IMG/VR virus record: IMGVR_UViG_3300037692_000137
Coordinates: 64,001-128,000 of that record
DNA length: 64,000 nucleotides
From: a virus
Taxonomy: Duplodnaviria > Caudoviricetes
Reading direction: 5' to 3' (one strand)
Both the position numbers and the translations under genes were made by a program. Below the pieces are notes generated by a model. It was given only the letters and a program-made list of their open reading frames with translations. It did not search any database and was not told the DNA's origin. Below, in pieces: positions 2,780 to 49,892 of the stretch. The stretch's first letter is position 1, and each line of letters starts with the position of its first letter.

Positions 2780-3262
2780 TCATCTCTTATATACTTCCAA
2801 TACAAAGTTGGACCCCTCAAATTTGTGAGCTGTTGGTATTAAATTGGCCTCGGTACATAAAGCAGAAAGCCATTTGACATCAAACATAACAAAGTGAAAG
2901 TTACCTGGGTAATCTTGTCCACCAAACATATGATAAGATACAAACTTAGCATCACCTGTTTGTCTATAATATTCCACAGCCCATTGCATATTTGGTGTAC
3001 GAATTTCCATTATACCACCATGCTTTAATAGCCTGGCCCATTCTTTAAGTAGACCAATAGTTTTGCTTATTGGGAAATGTTCTATTATGTCGCTCGCAAG
3101 TATATAATCAAACCGCTCATTGGGCAGGTCTACTGCCTCAACATTACCTACTATATCAACACCTTCTAAGGGGCGTATATCTAAGTTTACACACGTATAC
3201 CCTTTGGGGTATTCTTTGTATATGCGGTTGCCACAACCAATGTTTAAAGTTTTTTTAGTCAT
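2780..3262 (-). CDS. Class I SAM-dependent methyltransferase (Methyltransf_11-like)
   Basis: LNIGCG motif I, VNLDI, FDYILASDIIEHF, LLKHGG. Confidence 0.85.
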   Translation of the reverse strand: MTKKTLNIGCGNRIYKEYPKGYTCVNLDIRPLEGVDIVGNVEAVDLPNERFDYILASDIIEHFPISKTIGLLKEWARLLKHGGIMEIRTPNMQWAVEYYRQTGDAKFVSYHMFGGQDYPGNFHFVMFDVKWLSALCTEANLIPTAHKFEGSNFVLEVYKR

Positions 3263-3268
3263 AATATA

Positions 3269-4393
3269 TTATTTTAATTCAAGTTCTTTAAGTAATTTTG
3301 TACCAATGACGGTTAAAGAAAAATTAGTATTTATATACTGCTTTAATCTTTGCCCTGTTGTTTTGGCGGCCTCTTTATTATCATAAACAAACTTCATTAA
3401 GTCAGCGCCATTTTTTACATCAGGCTCTGCCCAAAGTTGATCACCTCTATACCATGGACTCCATGGCATACCGTAAACAGGTGTTAGTGTGTAATTTACT
3501 AAATAGCTATTATCTTGTTTGGCATATTCTGTCACGCCGCCAAATCCTGTGATTACTACTGGATTACCGAAAGCACCAGCCATAAAAGGACCTATGCCAA
3601 AACCTTCTCCTCTATCTAATGAAACGTAGCAATCACCTCTTTCATGTAACCCATTAATTTCATCCTCGGTTAGCATGTCTGGTAGTAAATAAATGGGTGG
3701 GTATTTGTCCATAGGTGTCACAGCTTTTAGTTTTCTTATGGTAATTCTTATGGCTTCTTTTTCTTCCTCGCTGTAATCACTACGATAAGTTTTTAGTACA
3801 AGAGCCACGTCTTCATTATTCTGAAATGCATGCCAGTAAGCTTTTATAAGAGCGGTGGGGTGTTTTCTTTCAGTAAATTGAAATATACTATAAAACATGT
3901 ACGTATCCTTAGATACACCGCTTATGTCATAAGGAACTGCTGTCTCTACGTAACTTAAGTCCATACAATGTGGCACCACCCCTATAGGAATAGTAACACC
4001 ACTACGTTTAAATACCTCTTTATTCCACTCACAACCAACCAAAACTTTATCTACGTTATTATTTATATACATTTTCCAATCTGGGTGTAGTAAATCGGTC
4101 TCCCATATAGTGTAGCCAATGTTCTTCTTTCCCTTTTCCCTGTATCTAGACCAGAATTCCGGTGTTGTATGTATGATCACTGTATCATAGTCCACCTTAG
4201 TATCCATTAACTTTGTTAAAAGGACTCCATCAGCACCTAAGTCTGGTTTTGCTTTTTCAAATGAAATAGGATCTAATGTTATGGGCACACCAAGTGAATG
4301 GAGTGCCAGAATATTACCACGACAGGCTTTTGCATAACCTGAATTGTCTAGAATTGGCCCTATATATTTTATACCTTTAATAGTCATTTCCAT
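3269..4393 (-). CDS. GT-B fold (GT4-like) glycosyltransferase
   Basis: SGYAKA N-terminal loop, YTIWET, ERKHP, DCYVSLDRGEGFGIG...GNPVVITGFGG donor-binding motif. Confidence 0.85.
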   Translation of the reverse strand: MEMTIKGIKYIGPILDNSGYAKACRGNILALHSLGVPITLDPISFEKAKPDLGADGVLLTKLMDTKVDYDTVIIHTTPEFWSRYREKGKKNIGYTIWETDLLHPDWKMYINNNVDKVLVGCEWNKEVFKRSGVTIPIGVVPHCMDLSYVETAVPYDISGVSKDTYMFYSIFQFTERKHPTALIKAYWHAFQNNEDVALVLKTYRSDYSEEEKEAIRITIRKLKAVTPMDKYPPIYLLPDMLTEDEINGLHERGDCYVSLDRGEGFGIGPFMAGAFGNPVVITGFGGVTEYAKQDNSYLVNYTLTPVYGMPWSPWYRGDQLWAEPDVKNGADLMKFVYDNKEAAKTTGQRLKQYINTNFSLTVIGTKLLKELELK

Positions 4394-4400
4394 ACCTTAT

Positions 4401-4427
4401 AGAAAGTGCCTAATCCTGGTAGGCACT
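4401..4427 (-). terminator. Possible intrinsic terminator or regulatory hairpin
   Basis: Minus strand AGTGCCTA-CCAGGAT-TAGGCACT followed by TTCT; perfect 8-bp stem in an intergenic gap. Confidence 0.45.
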
Positions 4428-4466
4428 ATTAAATATAATATGATTCCAGGAAACCTGCTTTTATAC

Positions 4467-4730
4467 TTACATTTGTGGGCCAGAGGGCATAGGACCACTG
4501 GCACTATCAGCGCTAATATCAAAAGTTACTACCTCAGCTTCTACCATAACCAAACGACTCTCATCCAGCCAGGTCCAATCAGGGATGTCACCATTCTCAT
4601 TTACTCTCTTTGGTTGCAATCCGTAGTGGATGCACCCAGTAGAATAGAAAGCCACCACCATTACAACACCCTCTAAACCTGTTATTTTATCTTTTAATAA
4701 ATCGCCGTTAGTAAACTTAGCTTCTCGCAT
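4467..4730 (-). CDS. Hypothetical phage protein (SH3-like beta barrel possible)
   Basis: 87 aa ORF with GGAG RBS; GDLLKDKITGLEGVV...WLDESRL pattern typical of small phage beta-barrel proteins. Confidence 0.6.
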   Translation of the reverse strand: MREAKFTNGDLLKDKITGLEGVVMVVAFYSTGCIHYGLQPKRVNENGDIPDWTWLDESRLVMVEAEVVTFDISADSASGPMPSGPQM

Positions 4731-4784
4731 AATAATGCTCCTGTAAATCTAATTGTTAATGTTTTACGTACAACTCTGATTATT

Positions 4785-5060
4785 TTACTTCAGTGTGTCC
4801 TCTTTTATATCATCTTTCCAAAGATGATAAGTAAGGGGTGTCCTATTTTCTCGGGCGGAATAATGACTATACTCATCTTTGGTGTCCTTTATGAATTGTA
4901 AATACGCGTGATATTTACAACAAGCAAAACATCTATATTCAGCTTCTAAAATTGTCCATGCGCCTATTGATGTTAAGTAGAAAACAACATATGGGCGTAC
5001 AAAGTATACCTTAGTTTTAGTAAAAAACCTATTAAATAATTTAATTATTTTATCAAACAT
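4785..5060 (-). CDS. Hypothetical protein
   Basis: 91 aa ORF co-oriented with neighbours, GGGGG RBS-like run upstream. Confidence 0.55.
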   Translation of the reverse strand: MFDKIIKLFNRFFTKTKVYFVRPYVVFYLTSIGAWTILEAEYRCFACCKYHAYLQFIKDTKDEYSHYSARENRTPLTYHLWKDDIKEDTLK

Positions 5061-5091
5061 AATACCCCCATTTAAATACTGCTATAATATA

Positions 5092-5373
5092 TTATAGTGC
5101 TAAGCGGACGGTGGTTATATCTAACAAAATTTCACCATCGGAACCGCTGGTTTTTAATGCTTCACCAGTAACTTTGTATATTATAGCAAAATAATCGCAT
5201 AAAGTCAATACCTCTTTTGATACAGATAATCCAATCTCCGCTTCACCTGTTAAATGATTTATAGAGAGCTTTATATTACCTGAGGCTATTATGTTTGGCT
5301 CGTGGGGATTATTAGTTCCACGATAGTATATTTCAAACATTGCATACCTCGCTGGCTTAATAAATGCAATCAC
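5092..5373 (-). CDS. Hypothetical protein
   Basis: 93 aa ORF (GTG start; an internal ATG with GAGGT RBS may be the real start). Confidence 0.5.
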   Translation of the reverse strand: MIAFIKPARYAMFEIYYRGTNNPHEPNIIASGNIKLSINHLTGEAEIGLSVSKEVLTLCDYFAIIYKVTGEALKTSGSDGEILLDITTVRLAL

Positions 5374-6551: not shown

Positions 6552-8102
6552 TTAAAACGTCTCTGCCTTTATAACATTACTAGTTTGTTGTGCTGCTACT
6601 TCAACTGTCTTAATTTTTTGTGAAACTATAGACTTAGATAAAGCATCAAAAGTTTTAACCCAAATATTACCAACCGCTGTTTGCCAATCTAAGGTGCCTG
6701 TAACAAATTTATACGCCTGTTCCGCCTTAGTCGTTGCCTCTTCATAATTATTATACACATGTAGCATCTTGTCGGTTAGATCTTCTACATCGACTAGCGG
6801 GCGTCTTACCTCGTTGTCATAAGGAAGTACTGTCCATAGGCTGGGGTTAGTACCACTTTTTACAAGGTAGCCCACATCCTCAGTAATATTTTCTATCATT
6901 GCGGTGTTTCTAGGCATAATAACGGGTGTTCTAGTGGCCATGGCCTCTATCCAGGAAAGCCCCCAACCCTCACCAAGGCTAGCACTAATTACGCAGTCAA
7001 CACAATTATATAACATATTAACTATCTCTCTCGGATAGCCTTGGTTAGGTCCAAAGTTCTGAGGAAATATTATGTCCTCTGATAGACTAAAATCGTATGC
7101 TCTGCAAACCTCTGGTAGATTCCAACCTTGATCTTGTTTAGCCATATGTAAATACAGTAAAGTGTTTGGTTCCTTTTTACGTAACTCATAAAATGCTTGA
7201 ATAGTTCTAGGAATATCTTTACGTTGCTGATTTCTATTTAAATTCATGTAGATAAACTTATCTGAGTGACGGCCAAAATAGCGTTTTCTAAAATCAATTA
7301 CTTCCTCACTAGGCAGCGGTTTAAACTCACTAGTATTAACCCCATGAGGGATTACAGACATGTTGCCAACAATTGGATATACTTCTTGGCATAGCTTTCT
7401 TCCAAAATTAGCATAGGTAACTACCTCATCACAAAAACTAATGTTCTTTACCCATTCTGGTTTTGGTGTGCCGTCAATAGGAAAGTATACTATAGACTTA
7501 AAAGGTGTCTCCCTGTTCTTTTTAAGATGTGGTATTAGCTCAGGTAAAAAGTCTAATATGAAACTATCCTGCATAAAAAACAATATATCAAAATCCATTT
7601 TGGGAATCATGTTGACAATCTTTTTACGGCCGTACGGATCTCTTTCCGCATTATTACCAACGGGCCAAATCCTATACGGAAAATTATGAGGATCGCCCCA
7701 GTAGTTTATACCCAGTACTTCAATGTCATACCTGCCAGTTCTGTGTAGTGCCTCTAAAACATTACGACTAACGGTACCAAAACCTGTTGCCAAATATCTT
7801 CGCATAAGAACGTTACTTCTTATACCGCTCTATTAGAGCTGCTGCATGTTTCCATGCAAGTTGAGACTATATCATCGACCACTTGGGCCGCCACGCGCTT
7901 CCACTCACTTGAGTGTACTTCCTTTCGGAATAGTCGTTGTACCTTCCTCTATAAAGAGGCTTGGCTCAGGATTGTCCTCGACTTGACGTTAGGAGTTTCC
8001 CTGAATTCACGTAGTTATTCGATACACATTGCTGTGTAAAGCTGCACATTATTTACAGGTAGGTGTATCCATGTAACATAAAATTTTAGTCTTTCTTTCC
8101 AT
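6552..8102 (-). CDS. GT-B fold (GT4-like) glycosyltransferase, spliced: exon 1 8102-8055, exon 2 7790-6552 (428 aa)
   Basis: AAGGAG RBS and exon 1 MERKTKILCYMDTPTC join in frame to exon 2 ATGFGTVSRNV...; exon 2 has NRNQQRKD and SASLGEGWGLSWIEAMA GT4-type motifs. Confidence 0.88.
7791..8054 (-). ncRNA. Group I self-splicing intron (IA-type, P7.1/P7.2 present), 264 nt, no internal ORF
   Basis: 5' exon ends in U and intron ends in G. P AATTCAGGGAAAC (8007-7995), Q AATCCTGAGC (7973-7964), R GTACAACGACTA (7942-7931), S GATATAGTC (7873-7865). P7 GACTA/TAGTC; P3 CTACGTG/CGCGTGG; P1 CUGU/GCAG with U-G at the splice site; P2, P7.1 and P9 close GNRA tetraloops. Confidence 0.93.
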
Positions 8103-8111
8103 AAAATCTCC

Positions 8112-8801
8112 TTAATTGTTTAATAATCTTTCACGATTACACATTAAAATTGAATACCAATTCTTGTGCCAAGTTCTATCTGTATTAGCACGAGAATTGC
8201 AACTTCTACATATAGTTATTAAATTAATAGGTCTACAGTCTTCCTTATCATAATTTATATGATGTATGGTTAACTCTTTAGTTACGCCAAAGCAACAAGG
8301 ATTCCTACAAATATTGTTATCCCTGTATTTTATAGCTTCTTTGTAAACTTTATCTTTCCAAGCGTCACAATAAGGTTTTAATGATACACCTCCTTTCCAA
8401 CTAGGGTTACCTGAACCAGTAATTTTAATAGCATGACAAGTTGGACACCTATAACCACCATTATTCCAATCTGTCCATGTCATAGTGTGTACATGCCCTA
8501 AAGGGCATTTGTATTCTAATTTAGTTTTCTGATTAGTGTACTTATCTGATAGTAAGGTGTACCCTTCTTTCAGCATAGCTCTACATATTGTAATCAAAGT
8601 GCATTTTATATTACCAGCACATTTAGCACACCTATGCCCATTTAACCAGTTGCTCCAACTTATAGAGTGTGTATGTCCTTTAGGACAAATATAAGTTAGT
8701 TTTTGTAAATTGTTAATATAAACACTACTCAATAGTATGTAACCTTCCGCAGCAAAGGACTCTCGTACATACCCATAAGTTAAGCGTTTACCTGAAGACA
8801 T
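8112..8801 (-). mobile_element. Free-standing HNH homing endonuclease with two N-terminal zinc-binding repeats
   Basis: Two EGYxLLSxxYxNxxxKLxYxCPxGHxHxxxWxxWxxGxRCxxC repeats, NPSWKGG linker, C-terminal RDNNICRNPCC...LTIHHINYDKEDCRPINLITICRSCNSRAN HNH domain. Confidence 0.85.
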
Positions 8802-8803
8802 TA

Positions 8804-9958
8804 TTATTTCTTTAGTTTACGCACATCTAAGAAGGGCGTTGTAAAATTTACTGTCATACTGTCTAGTATTTTAGCCTTAGCTGCCGGGTTTTTATCCATA
8901 TACTTTTCGACATCCGACTTATTCAATGACACCATATTCAGTAAATACTCTGGTGGTACTATTTGTTTAACCGCGCTAATATCATAAGTGGCCCTACTAT
9001 TTTGTCTAACATAAACTTCTTTACCCTCTACTTGCACATTTAATCCAGTAGTCTTTATACGATCCATTAGAAGTAATGACAATTCTTTTTCGCGCATCTC
9101 ATATATTTTTTTCATTTTTTTAATTTGCTGCCATTCATCTACTAAAGAGTTATTGTCTAAACGATAGGCTTCTTGGAATTTACCGTTAGAGTTTGTGTAG
9201 GCTTCTTTATACGCATTACAATACTCTCTAAAGTCACACCATGGACAAAATGTATTTAACGATGCCTTTACATCTTTTTCTTCTAAACACACCATTGCAT
9301 CATATACTAATTTAAGATACTCGGAGAAAGCTGCACGCTCTTCGGGTGTACGATAAGAGTATAACATCTCATGCTTTAATAAGTCAAGACTAACTATGAT
9401 ACGTTTTCCAGGCCATAGTATACTGGCTACTAAATCATACATAGATAATTGCTTATCTGTTTTCAATTGATCTGGTGTAGGGGCTGTTTTAGATGTTTTA
9501 TAGTCTACAATTAAAATAGTATCTTCATCTACTTGTATTACCTTATCGATAGCACCTAATAAGGGTACCCCTTCTTTGGTAACTACAGCGTCGCCGCCCC
9601 TATAACCAAATGGGGTTTCTAAACTTATAATCTTATGCCCTTCAGGAATGAAGTCATTAATTCTATTTGTTACTAACTCTATACCAGTTTGGTGTACTGA
9701 AAAGTCATCAAGTCCTTCTTTTACAGATGTTTCTTTAAACTTATTAATAATAAGCTCTTTATCTTTTTTACTAAATTTCTCCTTCTTCCGCCAAATATTA
9801 CCAGCTAGTTCTAAAGCCACGTGAACAGCTGTACCTAATTTAAACACCGGGTTATCTATTTTAGGCAACTTATCATAGTAGTTAAACCAGTATCTTTGCT
9901 TACACTGTAAAAAAATACTTATACGTGTAGCACTTATTTTAATATTATTATTTGCCAT
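8804..9958 (-). CDS. PD-(D/E)XK exonuclease, Cas4/RecB-like
   Basis: ISATRISIFLQCKQRY, LGTAVHVALE, GAIDKV...IVDYKTS, QLSMY, FCPWCDFREYC cysteine cluster. Confidence 0.85.
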   Translation of the reverse strand: MANNNIKISATRISIFLQCKQRYWFNYYDKLPKIDNPVFKLGTAVHVALELAGNIWRKKEKFSKKDKELIINKFKETSVKEGLDDFSVHQTGIELVTNRINDFIPEGHKIISLETPFGYRGGDAVVTKEGVPLLGAIDKVIQVDEDTILIVDYKTSKTAPTPDQLKTDKQLSMYDLVASILWPGKRIIVSLDLLKHEMLYSYRTPEERAAFSEYLKLVYDAMVCLEEKDVKASLNTFCPWCDFREYCNAYKEAYTNSNGKFQEAYRLDNNSLVDEWQQIKKMKKIYEMREKELSLLLMDRIKTTGLNVQVEGKEVYVRQNSRATYDISAVKQIVPPEYLLNMVSLNKSDVEKYMDKNPAAKAKILDSMTVNFTTPFLDVRKLKK

Positions 9959-35878: not shown

Positions 35879-36179
35879 TTATGACCTTTATATTAAATTT
35901 GCCAGTAAACTCATCAATAGTATAATGTACTTTTGTAGCGCCCTCATAAAAACCTATTGTGCGCTGTTCCACTTGAAAAGAGGCTTGATTACCCGGTATC
36001 ATAGACGCACGAGTATTAATGAAGTAAGCCTCTTTATTTAATAGGTGCCAACTTCTACCATCATAGTGTAAAGACAAACATTTTATCTGCGTTTTTGGTA
36101 TCGAAGCCCAAGAAGATTGATTTTCATTTATAGTAGTACCATCCTGTAGTTCTACTTCCCAACCTCTTCTAATTGACAT
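35871..36179 (-). CDS. Hypothetical protein
   Basis: 102 aa, overlaps both neighbours in operon fashion. Confidence 0.65.
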   Translation of the reverse strand: MSIRRGWEVELQDGTTINENQSSWASIPKTQIKCLSLHYDGRSWHLLNKEAYFINTRASMIPGNQASFQVEQRTIGFYEGATKVHYTIDEFTGKFNIKVING

Positions 36180-37605
36180 GATTGGTTCCTTTTCCTTTAT
36201 TGTATTTAACGTATTTTAAATTACCACAATCCCATATACGTGTATAGCCTTGGGCTTTCCTTAGTTCCCATTCAGAAACATCTTTTGGTTCGTCTGCCTT
36301 TTTACGAAGAGAGAACCTGTTAAATCTTTCATAACATTGATCTTTGAGATACCAATAATTAGGTTTAGTGTATTGATCAAACTCAAATCCTAATTTAGTG
36401 TATAAAGCGCCATCAGACCATCTTCTATCGGCGTAAGAAAATAACTCTAACCACGAGTAATTGCGTTCAAAATATTTTAGTAATTTTGAAGCACCCCCTA
36501 CTATCTCAGTGTTAAGCTTAGAACAAAACCTATGTAATTCCCAAACCCCCTCTTTAATTATTTTGTGTCCTTTGGCTAGGGATGGCCTGGAAAAGGTCAT
36601 TACGGCAACTAACATATCATTATATAATAAACCAAGTTTAATTGATGACCCCGCACCATACCCTTGAAGATGATTTTCTTCACAAAACATACGTGCTTGC
36701 TTTGCGTTTATGGTGGTAACTTTGCAATTACGGGCGTATATTTTAATAAAAGCTGATCTATCTATATAACTCAACAACCGTGACCGACATATTGCATTTT
36801 TGTATCTAAACTCATCAGCAAAAACCGTTATGAGCTTATAATTGTTGTTTAAACAGCCCTCCAATTTTTTTAAATGGTAGCTTTCTCCTTTACCTGTTAG
36901 TTCTGAATGCCAATATAAACCACAATACTCTATGGCAATTTTTTTATCTGGGATTACTATGTCTAATTCTTTGGGTTTACAAATAAATCTATTATTAGTA
37001 CTTACTTCAGCATGCTCTGATATAAAGCCTCTTAAAGCCTCTTCTTCTTTTGATACACCGCTACTACCACAAGTAGCACAGCGACTGCCTTTACTTGACC
37101 AATTATCCCAGGTAAAACTATAAATGTGCCCATTCGGGCATTTAGTTGTTAAATGATCTTGACAACCAATATAGTTTTCTGACATTAAATTATAGCCTTC
37201 CTGCTCCAAAGATGTTTTAATATCTAAAATATTTTTTTTTATGTTGCCATTACATAAGTAGCACCTTCGTCCTTGAAGCCATGAAGAATAGCAAATTGTG
37301 TATTTGTGCCCATGTGGGCAAACATAGTCTAATTTTTGCTTATTGTTTAGGTATTCTTTTGTTAATAAGACATAACCTTCTAATGCAAAGGACTTACGTA
37401 TCTCATCTAATGTATGTATGGGCCTCCCATTACAATAGGGACATCTGGCATCTTTGTGCAGCCAGTCAGCCCAAGCTATACTGTGTATGTGGCCTTCTGG
37501 GCATTTGTAATTAAGTTTCTTTTTGTTACTAATGTAAGTGTCACTTAATAATGTGTATCCCTCATTTTCAAAAGCTTTTCTTACAACATCTATTGTATAA
37601 CGCAT
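36169..37605 (-). mobile_element. Hef-like putative homing endonuclease: three zinc repeats, Vsr-like PD-(D/E)XK domain, C-terminal GNAT-like domain
   Basis: EGYxLL...CPxGH...RC repeats; ELDIVIPDKKIAIEYCGLYWHS; NHLQG...WELHRFC...GGASKLL...SYADRRW...IWDCG. Confidence 0.8.
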
Positions 37606-49005: not shown

Positions 49006-49892
49006 TCAACACTTTAACTCTGAATAATTACAGCCAGGCAGTTTATGTGCTTTTTTATGGCAGTCTTTACAAAATGTTATACAATTATCAATATCTGCGG
49101 ATTCTATGGGATTGTTGATTACAGGGTCAATGTGGTGACAGTGTAATGCAACCTCAGTTTTTCCGCATTTTTGACAAGTCCAGTTGTCTCTTTCTAGTAC
49201 TAATTTTCTTAGTGCCGGTTGAACTTCACGGGAAGTAGCTGATTTAAACCCTTTTGGGTATGTATGCTGCTTATATATAGAACAAGCATTTTTGCATTGT
49301 TCTGAGCAGTAAAATCGCTGGTCCCCTCTAAGCAACCCAATCTATGATTTATTTCATCTATATTAGGTACAGTTACTTTATTGCAATACTCGCAATGTAC
49401 ACCTAACAGAATAAATCCAGCCTCATGGGGCACTTCCTTTATTTCATGGAAAGGAGCTAACCTTTTCATATAAGTGCTATATAAAGGTAAGCGTATTTTT
49501 CCAATACCCTCTTTCCAAGTTCCGCCGCAGATTCTGCATCTATGCCCTTGCTTCCAACGATCCCAAGTCATGGAATAGGTATGCCCGTTGTTACATATAA
49601 AAAGTAATTTTTGTTTAGCATTAATATATGTTTTTGTAAGTAGTTGGTAGCCCGCTTGCTCAAAAGATTTCTTTACTTCTTTAAAAGCAACTGGAGCGTT
49701 ATGTGCACAGTCTGGGCATCTATATCCAGTAACCCAATTTCCCCAGGTAATACTATTTTTATGCCCAAAAGGACATATGTAATGCATCTTGGTTTTAGCA
49801 TTTATATATGTCTTATCTATAAGGATATATCCCTCAACTTCAAAATTATTACGCACAAAACAATATTCTATTTTTTTAGGCATAGTAATCAC
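49006..49892 (-). pseudogene. Frameshifted zinc-repeat HNH homing endonuclease (ORFs 49892-49209 and 49335-49006)
   Basis: N-terminal ORF has two EGY/AGY...CxxGH...RC repeats; the -1 frame has LERDNWTCQKC...HCHHID...NCITFCKDCH HNH; one extra base in the GGGG run (49326-49323) gives a continuous LEGDQRFYCSEQC. Confidence 0.75.

Follow-up and report, generated by a model that had tools for sequence, protein, structure and literature searches.

A group I intron without an open reading frame beside a free-standing HNH endonuclease gene at a phage glycosyltransferase locus, and its candidate mobilisation in trans

We analysed a 64,000-nucleotide (nt) stretch of DNA from an uncultivated sediment phage (hereafter the window; positions 64,001 to 128,000 of the 234-kb IMG/VR virus record IMGVR_UViG_3300037692_000137), in which a glycosyltransferase (GT) gene is interrupted close to its 5' end by a predicted self-splicing group I intron that carries no gene of its own, immediately downstream of a free-standing HNH endonuclease gene. 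Coordinates are those of the window, and the genes of the locus are all on the minus strand (Table 1). The HNH gene fills the space between a Cas4-like nuclease gene and the GT gene, starting 2 nt past the stop codon of the former and ending 9 nt ahead of the start codon of the latter, and its stop at 8112 is 57 nt from the intron insertion site between 8055 and 8054. A first-pass annotation of this DNA had proposed that the HNH and the intron form a collaborative homing pair, and the layout it described, an intron without an open reading frame (ORF) next to a free-standing HNH gene, does match published cases of that arrangement. Its placing of the HNH stop codon was confirmed (ORF 8801..8112, TAA 8114-8112), as were the absence of an ORF from the intron and the presence upstream of a Cas4-like gene, here assigned to the PD-(D/E)XK nucleases (PF12705, E = 1e-23), and we read the same exon junction, ACACCTACCTGT/GCAACAGGTTTTGG (a slash marks the insertion site throughout). 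The close spacing also holds, with small corrections to its distances: the gap between the HNH and GT genes is 9 nt (8111-8103) rather than 10 nt, and the distance from the HNH stop to the insertion site is 57 nt rather than about 58 nt.

Table 1. Features of the glycosyltransferase locus in the window.
Feature	Coordinates	Strand	Evidence and remarks
Cas4-like PD-(D/E)XK exonuclease gene	9958..8804	-	PF12705, E = 1e-23; phrog_69; bounds the insertion slot on its upstream side
Free-standing HNH endonuclease gene, 229 residues	8801..8112	-	phrog_559, phrog_681; stop codon TAA 8114-8112 included
Two tandem zinc-ribbon repeats of about 57 residues (Pfam CapR-like; about residues 8-62 and 66-124), presumed DNA-binding	8430..8780	-	PF21817, E = 7e-6
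HNH nuclease domain, residues 140-229	8115..8384	-	Invariant residues in homologues; structural matches
9-nt spacer with GGAG ribosome-binding site for the GT gene	8111-8103	-	Sequence reading
GT exon 1, 16 codons (MERKTKILCYMDTPTC)	8102..8055	-	Sequence reading; ATG at 8102-8100; matches the N-terminus KIKVLAYCDSPTC of intronless homologues
Group I intron without ORF, 264 nt	8054..7791	-	RF00028; fold z-score; covariation; L001/L002 have a 90% identical intron at this site
GT exon 2, 412 codons plus stop, GT4 glycosyltransferase	7790..6552	-	PF00534, E = 7.6e-11; PF20706; phrog_2170, E = 3.5e-50

The Rfam model RF00028 matches positions 8064..7842 over its full length (model positions 1-253) and scores 83.5 bits, where the gathering threshold is 50 (E = 9.5e-20). 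U8055 precedes the 5' splice site and G7791 is the terminal nucleotide of the intron; the exon sequence CCUGU/A can pair with intron GCAG to form the P1 guide helix, which places a U-G wobble at the splice site. The intron has a fold z-score of -3.2, and in an alignment of 10 related introns, this one included, compensatory double changes occur in 22 of the 60 predicted pairs. An in-frame stop codon lies two codons into the intron when it is read from exon 1, and no sense-strand ORF of 40 residues or more was found inside it. Exon 1 codes for the residues that stand at the same place in intronless homologues: the spliced N-terminus, KILCYMDTPTC/ATGFGTVSRN, aligns with KIKVLAYCDSPTC/ATGFGTVSRN, the sequence at this place in over 80 intronless alleles. 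Excision would restore both the invariant motif ...SPTC/ATGFGTV and an intact GT reading frame. Because of the covariation and of this match between exon 1 and the intronless homologues, the assignment of the element as an intron is far beyond chance.

Automatic ORF calls hide the intron and drop the 16-codon first exon, so annotations of such loci need to be read with care. In the window, ORF calling opens the GT gene at an ATG inside the intron (7805; MRRYL...), and the equivalent call in the related contig L001 starts at a TTG. No other group I intron was found in the 234-kb virus record. The introns most closely related to this one are 72-79% identical to it over about 240 nt, colinear with it and likewise without ORFs, and they lie near the 5' end of SU10-type major capsid genes on other viral contigs (L147:3038-3301, L160:2266-2525, L191:2894-3153 and L168:874-1133). 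The core motif of this intron family is present in 112 IMG/VR stretches. A megablast comparison of the locus with GenBank phages returned no close genome, and its matches were confined to the intron core in unrelated phages.

The HNH protein matches PHROG HNH families (phrog_559 and phrog_681) at E = 4e-17, and scores 18.7 bits against Pfam HNH_3, under the cut-off of 24.8 for that family. The residues R160, D161, C165, N167, P168, C170, H180, H181, N193, C198, C201, N202 and N206 are invariant across 26 aligned homologues and are all kept here. Among them, H180, H181, N193, N202 and N206 probably supply the catalytic histidine, the asparagine and the metal ligands, and C165, C170, C198 and C201 are the likely zinc cysteines. 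A sequence search of the PDB with the protein gave no matches. An AlphaFold (AF2) model has a mean pLDDT (predicted local distance difference test score) of 82, rising to about 90 in both repeats, and structural alignment of residues 140-229 with VIA-align identified EcoKMcrA (Z 7.6), IscB (Z 7.2), ScoMcrA (Z 6.3) and the HNH protein of phage GVE2 (Z 5.3). Foldseek assigned probabilities of 0.98-0.99 to HNH folds, with weak E-values for the whole model because the protein has several domains. The model points to a nuclease with a beta-beta-alpha-metal HNH fold, and the gene appears to be intact.

Homologues of the protein (164 matches at 45-62% identity) carry two, three or four of the repeats, which show a conserved C..H...C..C pattern in the alignment of homologues, and are found mostly on large phage contigs. 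An Rfam scan of loci carrying homologues or paralogues of the HNH gene (L013-L017, L020-L023, L109, L111, L112, L026 and L027) revealed no more introns, and the HNH family is therefore not generally tied to introns. Three more repeat-bearing genes are present in the genome, two in the window (36169-37605 and 49209-49892, both on the minus strand) and one outside it (G000 148048-148605). They code for proteins of 478, 227 and 484 residues, and none adjoins an intron; the two within the window gave no match to a Pfam nuclease domain. Elsewhere, HNH homologues at L110:3001-3861 and L225:3001-4035 share a context, between a gene of about 320-334 residues and genes of about 198/211 residues without Pfam hits, which suggests another preferred slot for the family.

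We placed the locus among its relatives through GT-based scans of IMG/VR and JGI metagenomes, the JGI metagenome part of the sample amounting to 80 of 261 confirmed loci. These scans gave about 90-95 loci with the gene order DnaJ, RuvC, Cas4-like, slot, GT, and 81 distinct GT alleles remained once duplicates had been removed. The slot is empty in 60 of the 81, with the GT gene following the Cas4-like gene directly after a gap of 10-150 nt, and some insert is present in about 22% of alleles. An HNH gene of the same family occupies the slot in eight distinct alleles, or about 10%. It does so in L005, L026, L027, L032, L095 and L103/L066, the GT gene being uninterrupted in every one; L063, whose GT gene is also uninterrupted, retains a short HNH remnant within a 275-nt gap. 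When we looked up the 10 closest homologues of the HNH protein, six proved to lie in this same slot beside an intronless GT gene (L026, L027, L109, L112, L226 and L227) and four elsewhere, and four of these six (L109, L112, L226 and L227) add to the GT-based sample. Taken together, the HNH gene accompanies an intronless GT gene in at least 10 lineages beyond that of the window. One further locus, L111, was considered as a second intron case on account of a 281-nt gap after its HNH gene and was rejected: the gap consists of Ns introduced by scaffolding, and the gene beyond it codes for a different glycosyltransferase. At L227:1624-2887, the GT gene that follows the HNH gene is called as two ORFs of 235 and 173 residues, perhaps through a frameshift or an assembly error.

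The same slot accommodates other insertions. In L004 (4838-5902), L094 (2321-3916), L079 and L069, the slot protein joins three or four copies of the zinc-ribbon repeat to a restriction-endonuclease-like domain (PF18741-like), with no HNH domain, which suggests that a DNA-binding repeat module is common to the slot proteins and that the nuclease domain has been swapped. In L094, the C-terminal part of the protein is in addition Mom-like. L007 has an unrelated HNH gene in the slot, L041 (2641-3846) a class III aminotransferase gene with no nuclease (PF00202, E = 2e-126), and three loci have small ORFs there. On the GT tree, the HNH-bearing alleles are scattered, requiring at least five changes, and L030, the sister of the window's clade, has neither nuclease nor intron. 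A tree of the C-terminal 125 residues of the HNH proteins is too poorly resolved to tell whether those in the slot form one clade. The nuclease appears to behave like a free-standing homing endonuclease, because its presence at a single fixed position is sporadic, because it decays once fixed, and because its DNA-binding module is joined to varied nuclease domains. A domesticated role for the HNH protein, for example as a packaging-associated HNH, was rejected in the light of its sporadic distribution and its presence as a pseudogene in a sister population. The GT gene itself is interrupted a second way among these relatives: LAGLIDADG inteins occur in L008:6772-8199 and L009:6811-8103, at the motif EGWGL/C...HN/SWIEAMA (slashes here mark the intein boundaries), near residue 294 of the window's protein. 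Across the relatives, an intron, inteins and free-standing nucleases have thus all invaded this one gene.

The intron was seen only in the window and in one sister population, represented by L001, L002 and L029 from three samples, whose GT is 90% identical. The HNH gene of this sister population is a pseudogene: the repeat region is deleted, the N-terminal part survives as an ORF of 37 codons closed by a stop codon, and the HNH domain lies behind a stop in another frame. The intron therefore persists there without a working HNH, which argues against strict interdependence of the two elements. The interpretation in the first-pass annotation is supported in part, and the comparison of relatives that it called for gives a mixed answer: the intron stands only beside the HNH gene or its remnant, in one lineage, and the HNH gene stands without the intron in at least 10. 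Those lineages carry the HNH gene beside an intact junction, and the distribution of the nuclease is thus independent of the intron. The intron would be best read as a later addition in a single lineage and as a single evolutionary event. Public sequencing runs, covered at the contig level, yielded no variant of the phage that lacked the nuclease or the intron; the phage was found in no RNA run, and the intron core cross-maps to many introns. An exon joint in one wastewater run is the intronless allele of a relative. Stretches of the window at 2900-3600, 4270-4500, 4650-5320 and 6750-6970 are 93-98% identical to L001 on a background of 80-86%, and are the product of mosaic exchange between the two phage populations.

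We compared HNH-bearing and empty alleles for rare residues, defined as those with a frequency below 8% at well-conserved columns, after merging near-duplicate alleles into one lineage, and assessed the differences with Mann-Whitney tests. Over the 28 GT codons from -13 to +15 around the insertion site, HNH-bearing lineages have a mean of 2.9 rare residues as against 0.8 in the 60 empty alleles (p = 4e-5), whereas over the rest of the GT the means are 8.8 and 8.3 (p = 0.5). No such excess was found when we looked for it in the C-terminus of the Cas4-like protein. The excess extends to both sides of the insertion site, being 2.6-fold upstream and 6.5-fold downstream. The site itself lies in invariant columns, much of the insertion motif KIKVLAYCDSPTC/ATGFGTVSRNIF being the same in all 81 alleles. 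The commonest recurrent change affects the AYCD motif, 13-24 nt upstream of the junction, which reads CYMD in the window, L001 and L032, AYMD in L095, VYAD in L026 and CYAD in L063. All four of the HNH-bearing alleles that were found independently, by the look-ups of HNH homologues, depart from the consensus there, and three of the four have alanine in place of Cys8. Such a local excess would fit either substitutions that protect the target or flanking sequence that travelled with the nuclease gene, and on either account the homing activity would be placed at the 5' end of the GT gene, around the intron site. The comparative signal points to a likely target within about 45 nt of the insertion site, not necessarily at it.

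These observations lead us to favour, with some reservation, a model in which two separate selfish elements have come together at the 5' end of the GT gene, the HNH cutting the stretch that contains the intron site and the nearby intron being carried along. The HNH lineage would repeatedly have taken the slot between the Cas4-like and GT genes in related phages, and the nuclease would nick or cut nuclease-free alleles within the conserved first 28 or so GT codons. Recombinational repair from a donor such as this phage would then copy the nuclease gene into the cut allele; the intron would be copied along with it, as is to be expected when only 57 nt separate the two elements. Alleles that bear the HNH gene would be spared mainly through their substitutions in that stretch. 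The nuclease would be independent of the intron, and the intron could outlive the nuclease, as it appears to have done in the sister population. Such a process would be termed trans homing; were the cut to fall at the insertion site itself, it would count as collaborative homing.

Several observations weigh against this two-element model. Intron and HNH occur together in a single lineage, and with HNH genes in about 10% of alleles such a coincidence has a chance probability of about 0.1, while the HNH-bearing lineages without the intron number at least 10. Among 80 loci with related introns, this HNH family is nearby only at the two on the L001 and L002 contigs. Identity between the window and L001 is just slightly higher over the cassette (87-93%) than in the flanks (80-86%), and a sliding identity profile shows no clear transfer block around the cassette and no sign of recent transfer. 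The test for rare residues was framed after the first data set had been seen and is without tree correction, and a tree-aware pair test of the Cys8 change is underpowered (three or four pairs in the same direction and none in the opposite, p = 0.125-0.25). Finally, the window allele already has CYMD, like the intronless HNH-bearing allele of L032, and the intron may therefore not be needed for protection.

The original proposal was one of strict collaborative homing, under which the HNH would cut DNA spanning the exon junction, the intron would make its own allele resistant, and the two would spread interdependently. Much of the layout is what this would predict: the intron has no ORF and lies 57 nt from the HNH gene, the rare substitutions are in excess on both sides of the site, and the insertion site falls in columns that do not vary among the 81 alleles, so that protection by substitution would come at a cost there. 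There are also precedents in the psbA gene of S-PM2 with F-CphI and in the DNA polymerase genes of T3 and PhiI. We nevertheless judge it unlikely, because the window shares its CYMD with L032, because the changes that recur most often are 16-24 nt upstream of the junction and not at it, and because the L001 intron endures without a functional HNH; the lineages, at least 10 in number, with an HNH gene and an uninterrupted junction count against it as well. An alternative that we rate no higher is that the two elements are coincident neighbours. The slot would then be a general insertion hot spot, and the GT motif would have drawn the intron independently, with an HNH that targets DNA elsewhere, or is inactive, and does not move the intron. 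The variety of slot inserts agrees with this (an HNH gene in L007, nuclease genes in L004 and L094, an aminotransferase gene in L041 and small ORFs), as do the LAGLIDADG inteins at another conserved motif of the same gene (L008 and L009), the frequency of related introns without ORFs in other phage genes with no HNH of this family nearby, and the fact that the co-occurrence of intron and HNH comes from one lineage. However, a nuclease that acts elsewhere would hardly account for the excess of rare residues that HNH-bearing alleles show beside the intron site, and any cut within a typical co-conversion distance would still carry an element that is 57 nt away.

A history of nuclease turnover, in which the intron once had a homing endonuclease gene of its own that is now lost and an unrelated free-standing HNH occupies the adjoining slot, has been put forward as an alternative origin for such layouts (PMC10448857), and a cycle of nuclease gain and decay is visible at the locus in L001 and L063. 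Against it, the 264-nt intron is compact and retains no trace of an ORF, the introns closest to it align colinearly over about 240 nt and are likewise free of ORFs, and no allele in the sample has an intron-encoded nuclease at this site; we regard this history as very improbable. A more far-reaching interpretation, which we offer as a speculation that is quite unlikely to hold in full, is that the locus preserves stages in the assembly of mobile introns: the empty site, a nuclease whose allele is protected by substitutions, a nuclease together with an intron without an ORF in the invariant core of the target, and the intron after decay of the nuclease. The intron would then have been kept for splitting a target whose central residues cannot change, and would be an immunity device against a homing endonuclease.

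Few cases are known of an intron without an ORF next to a neighbouring free-standing nuclease, and fewer still with natural relatives in other states. The approximately 90-95 alleles of this locus display the empty form, the form with the nuclease only, that with nuclease and intron, and that with the intron and a dead nuclease, in addition to inteins in the same gene. With this allele set it becomes testable by what route an intron and a homing endonuclease arrive at a common target, and whether the presence of an intron can protect an allele.

The established precedents for collaborative homing, as they are summarised in PMC3984707, are the psbA intron of cyanophage S-PM2 with the adjacent F-CphI (Zeng, Bonocora and Shub 2009), and gene 5.3 of phage T3 and I-TslI of PhiI at the DNA polymerase gene (Bonocora and Shub 2009). 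Going by that summary, the phages related to ours that have a free-standing HNH of the same family beside an intronless gene resemble the T3 gene 5.3 state. The present system differs from those of S-PM2 and T3, as outlined there, in that the host gene is a glycosyltransferase gene of an uncultivated phage with a 234-kb record from sediment, in that the nuclease combines zinc-ribbon repeats with a McrA-like HNH domain, and in that HNH-bearing alleles are apparently protected mainly by substitutions, cleavage at the insertion site being only proposed. Phage T4 offers a parallel for trans homing: its nrdB intron is mobilised in trans by the adjacent free-standing HNH endonuclease MobE, for which nicking and inheritance were measured, and there proximity matters and a cut within co-conversion distance, not at the insertion site, suffices (PMC2790892). 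As in T4, a free-standing HNH gene in the window adjoins a gene whose intron cannot move itself. Unlike the nrdB intron, which holds a defunct I-TevIII gene, the intron of the window is without any ORF, and, unlike that of MobE, the system described here is known from sequence alone. The locus is also similar to the large terminase gene of phage ICP1, in which an intron lies beside a T5orf172 homing endonuclease gene, a case that is likewise inferred from layout (PMC10448857). Both have a short and easily missed exon 1, an intron without an ORF and a free-standing nuclease gene beside exon 1, although the nuclease family and the host gene are different.

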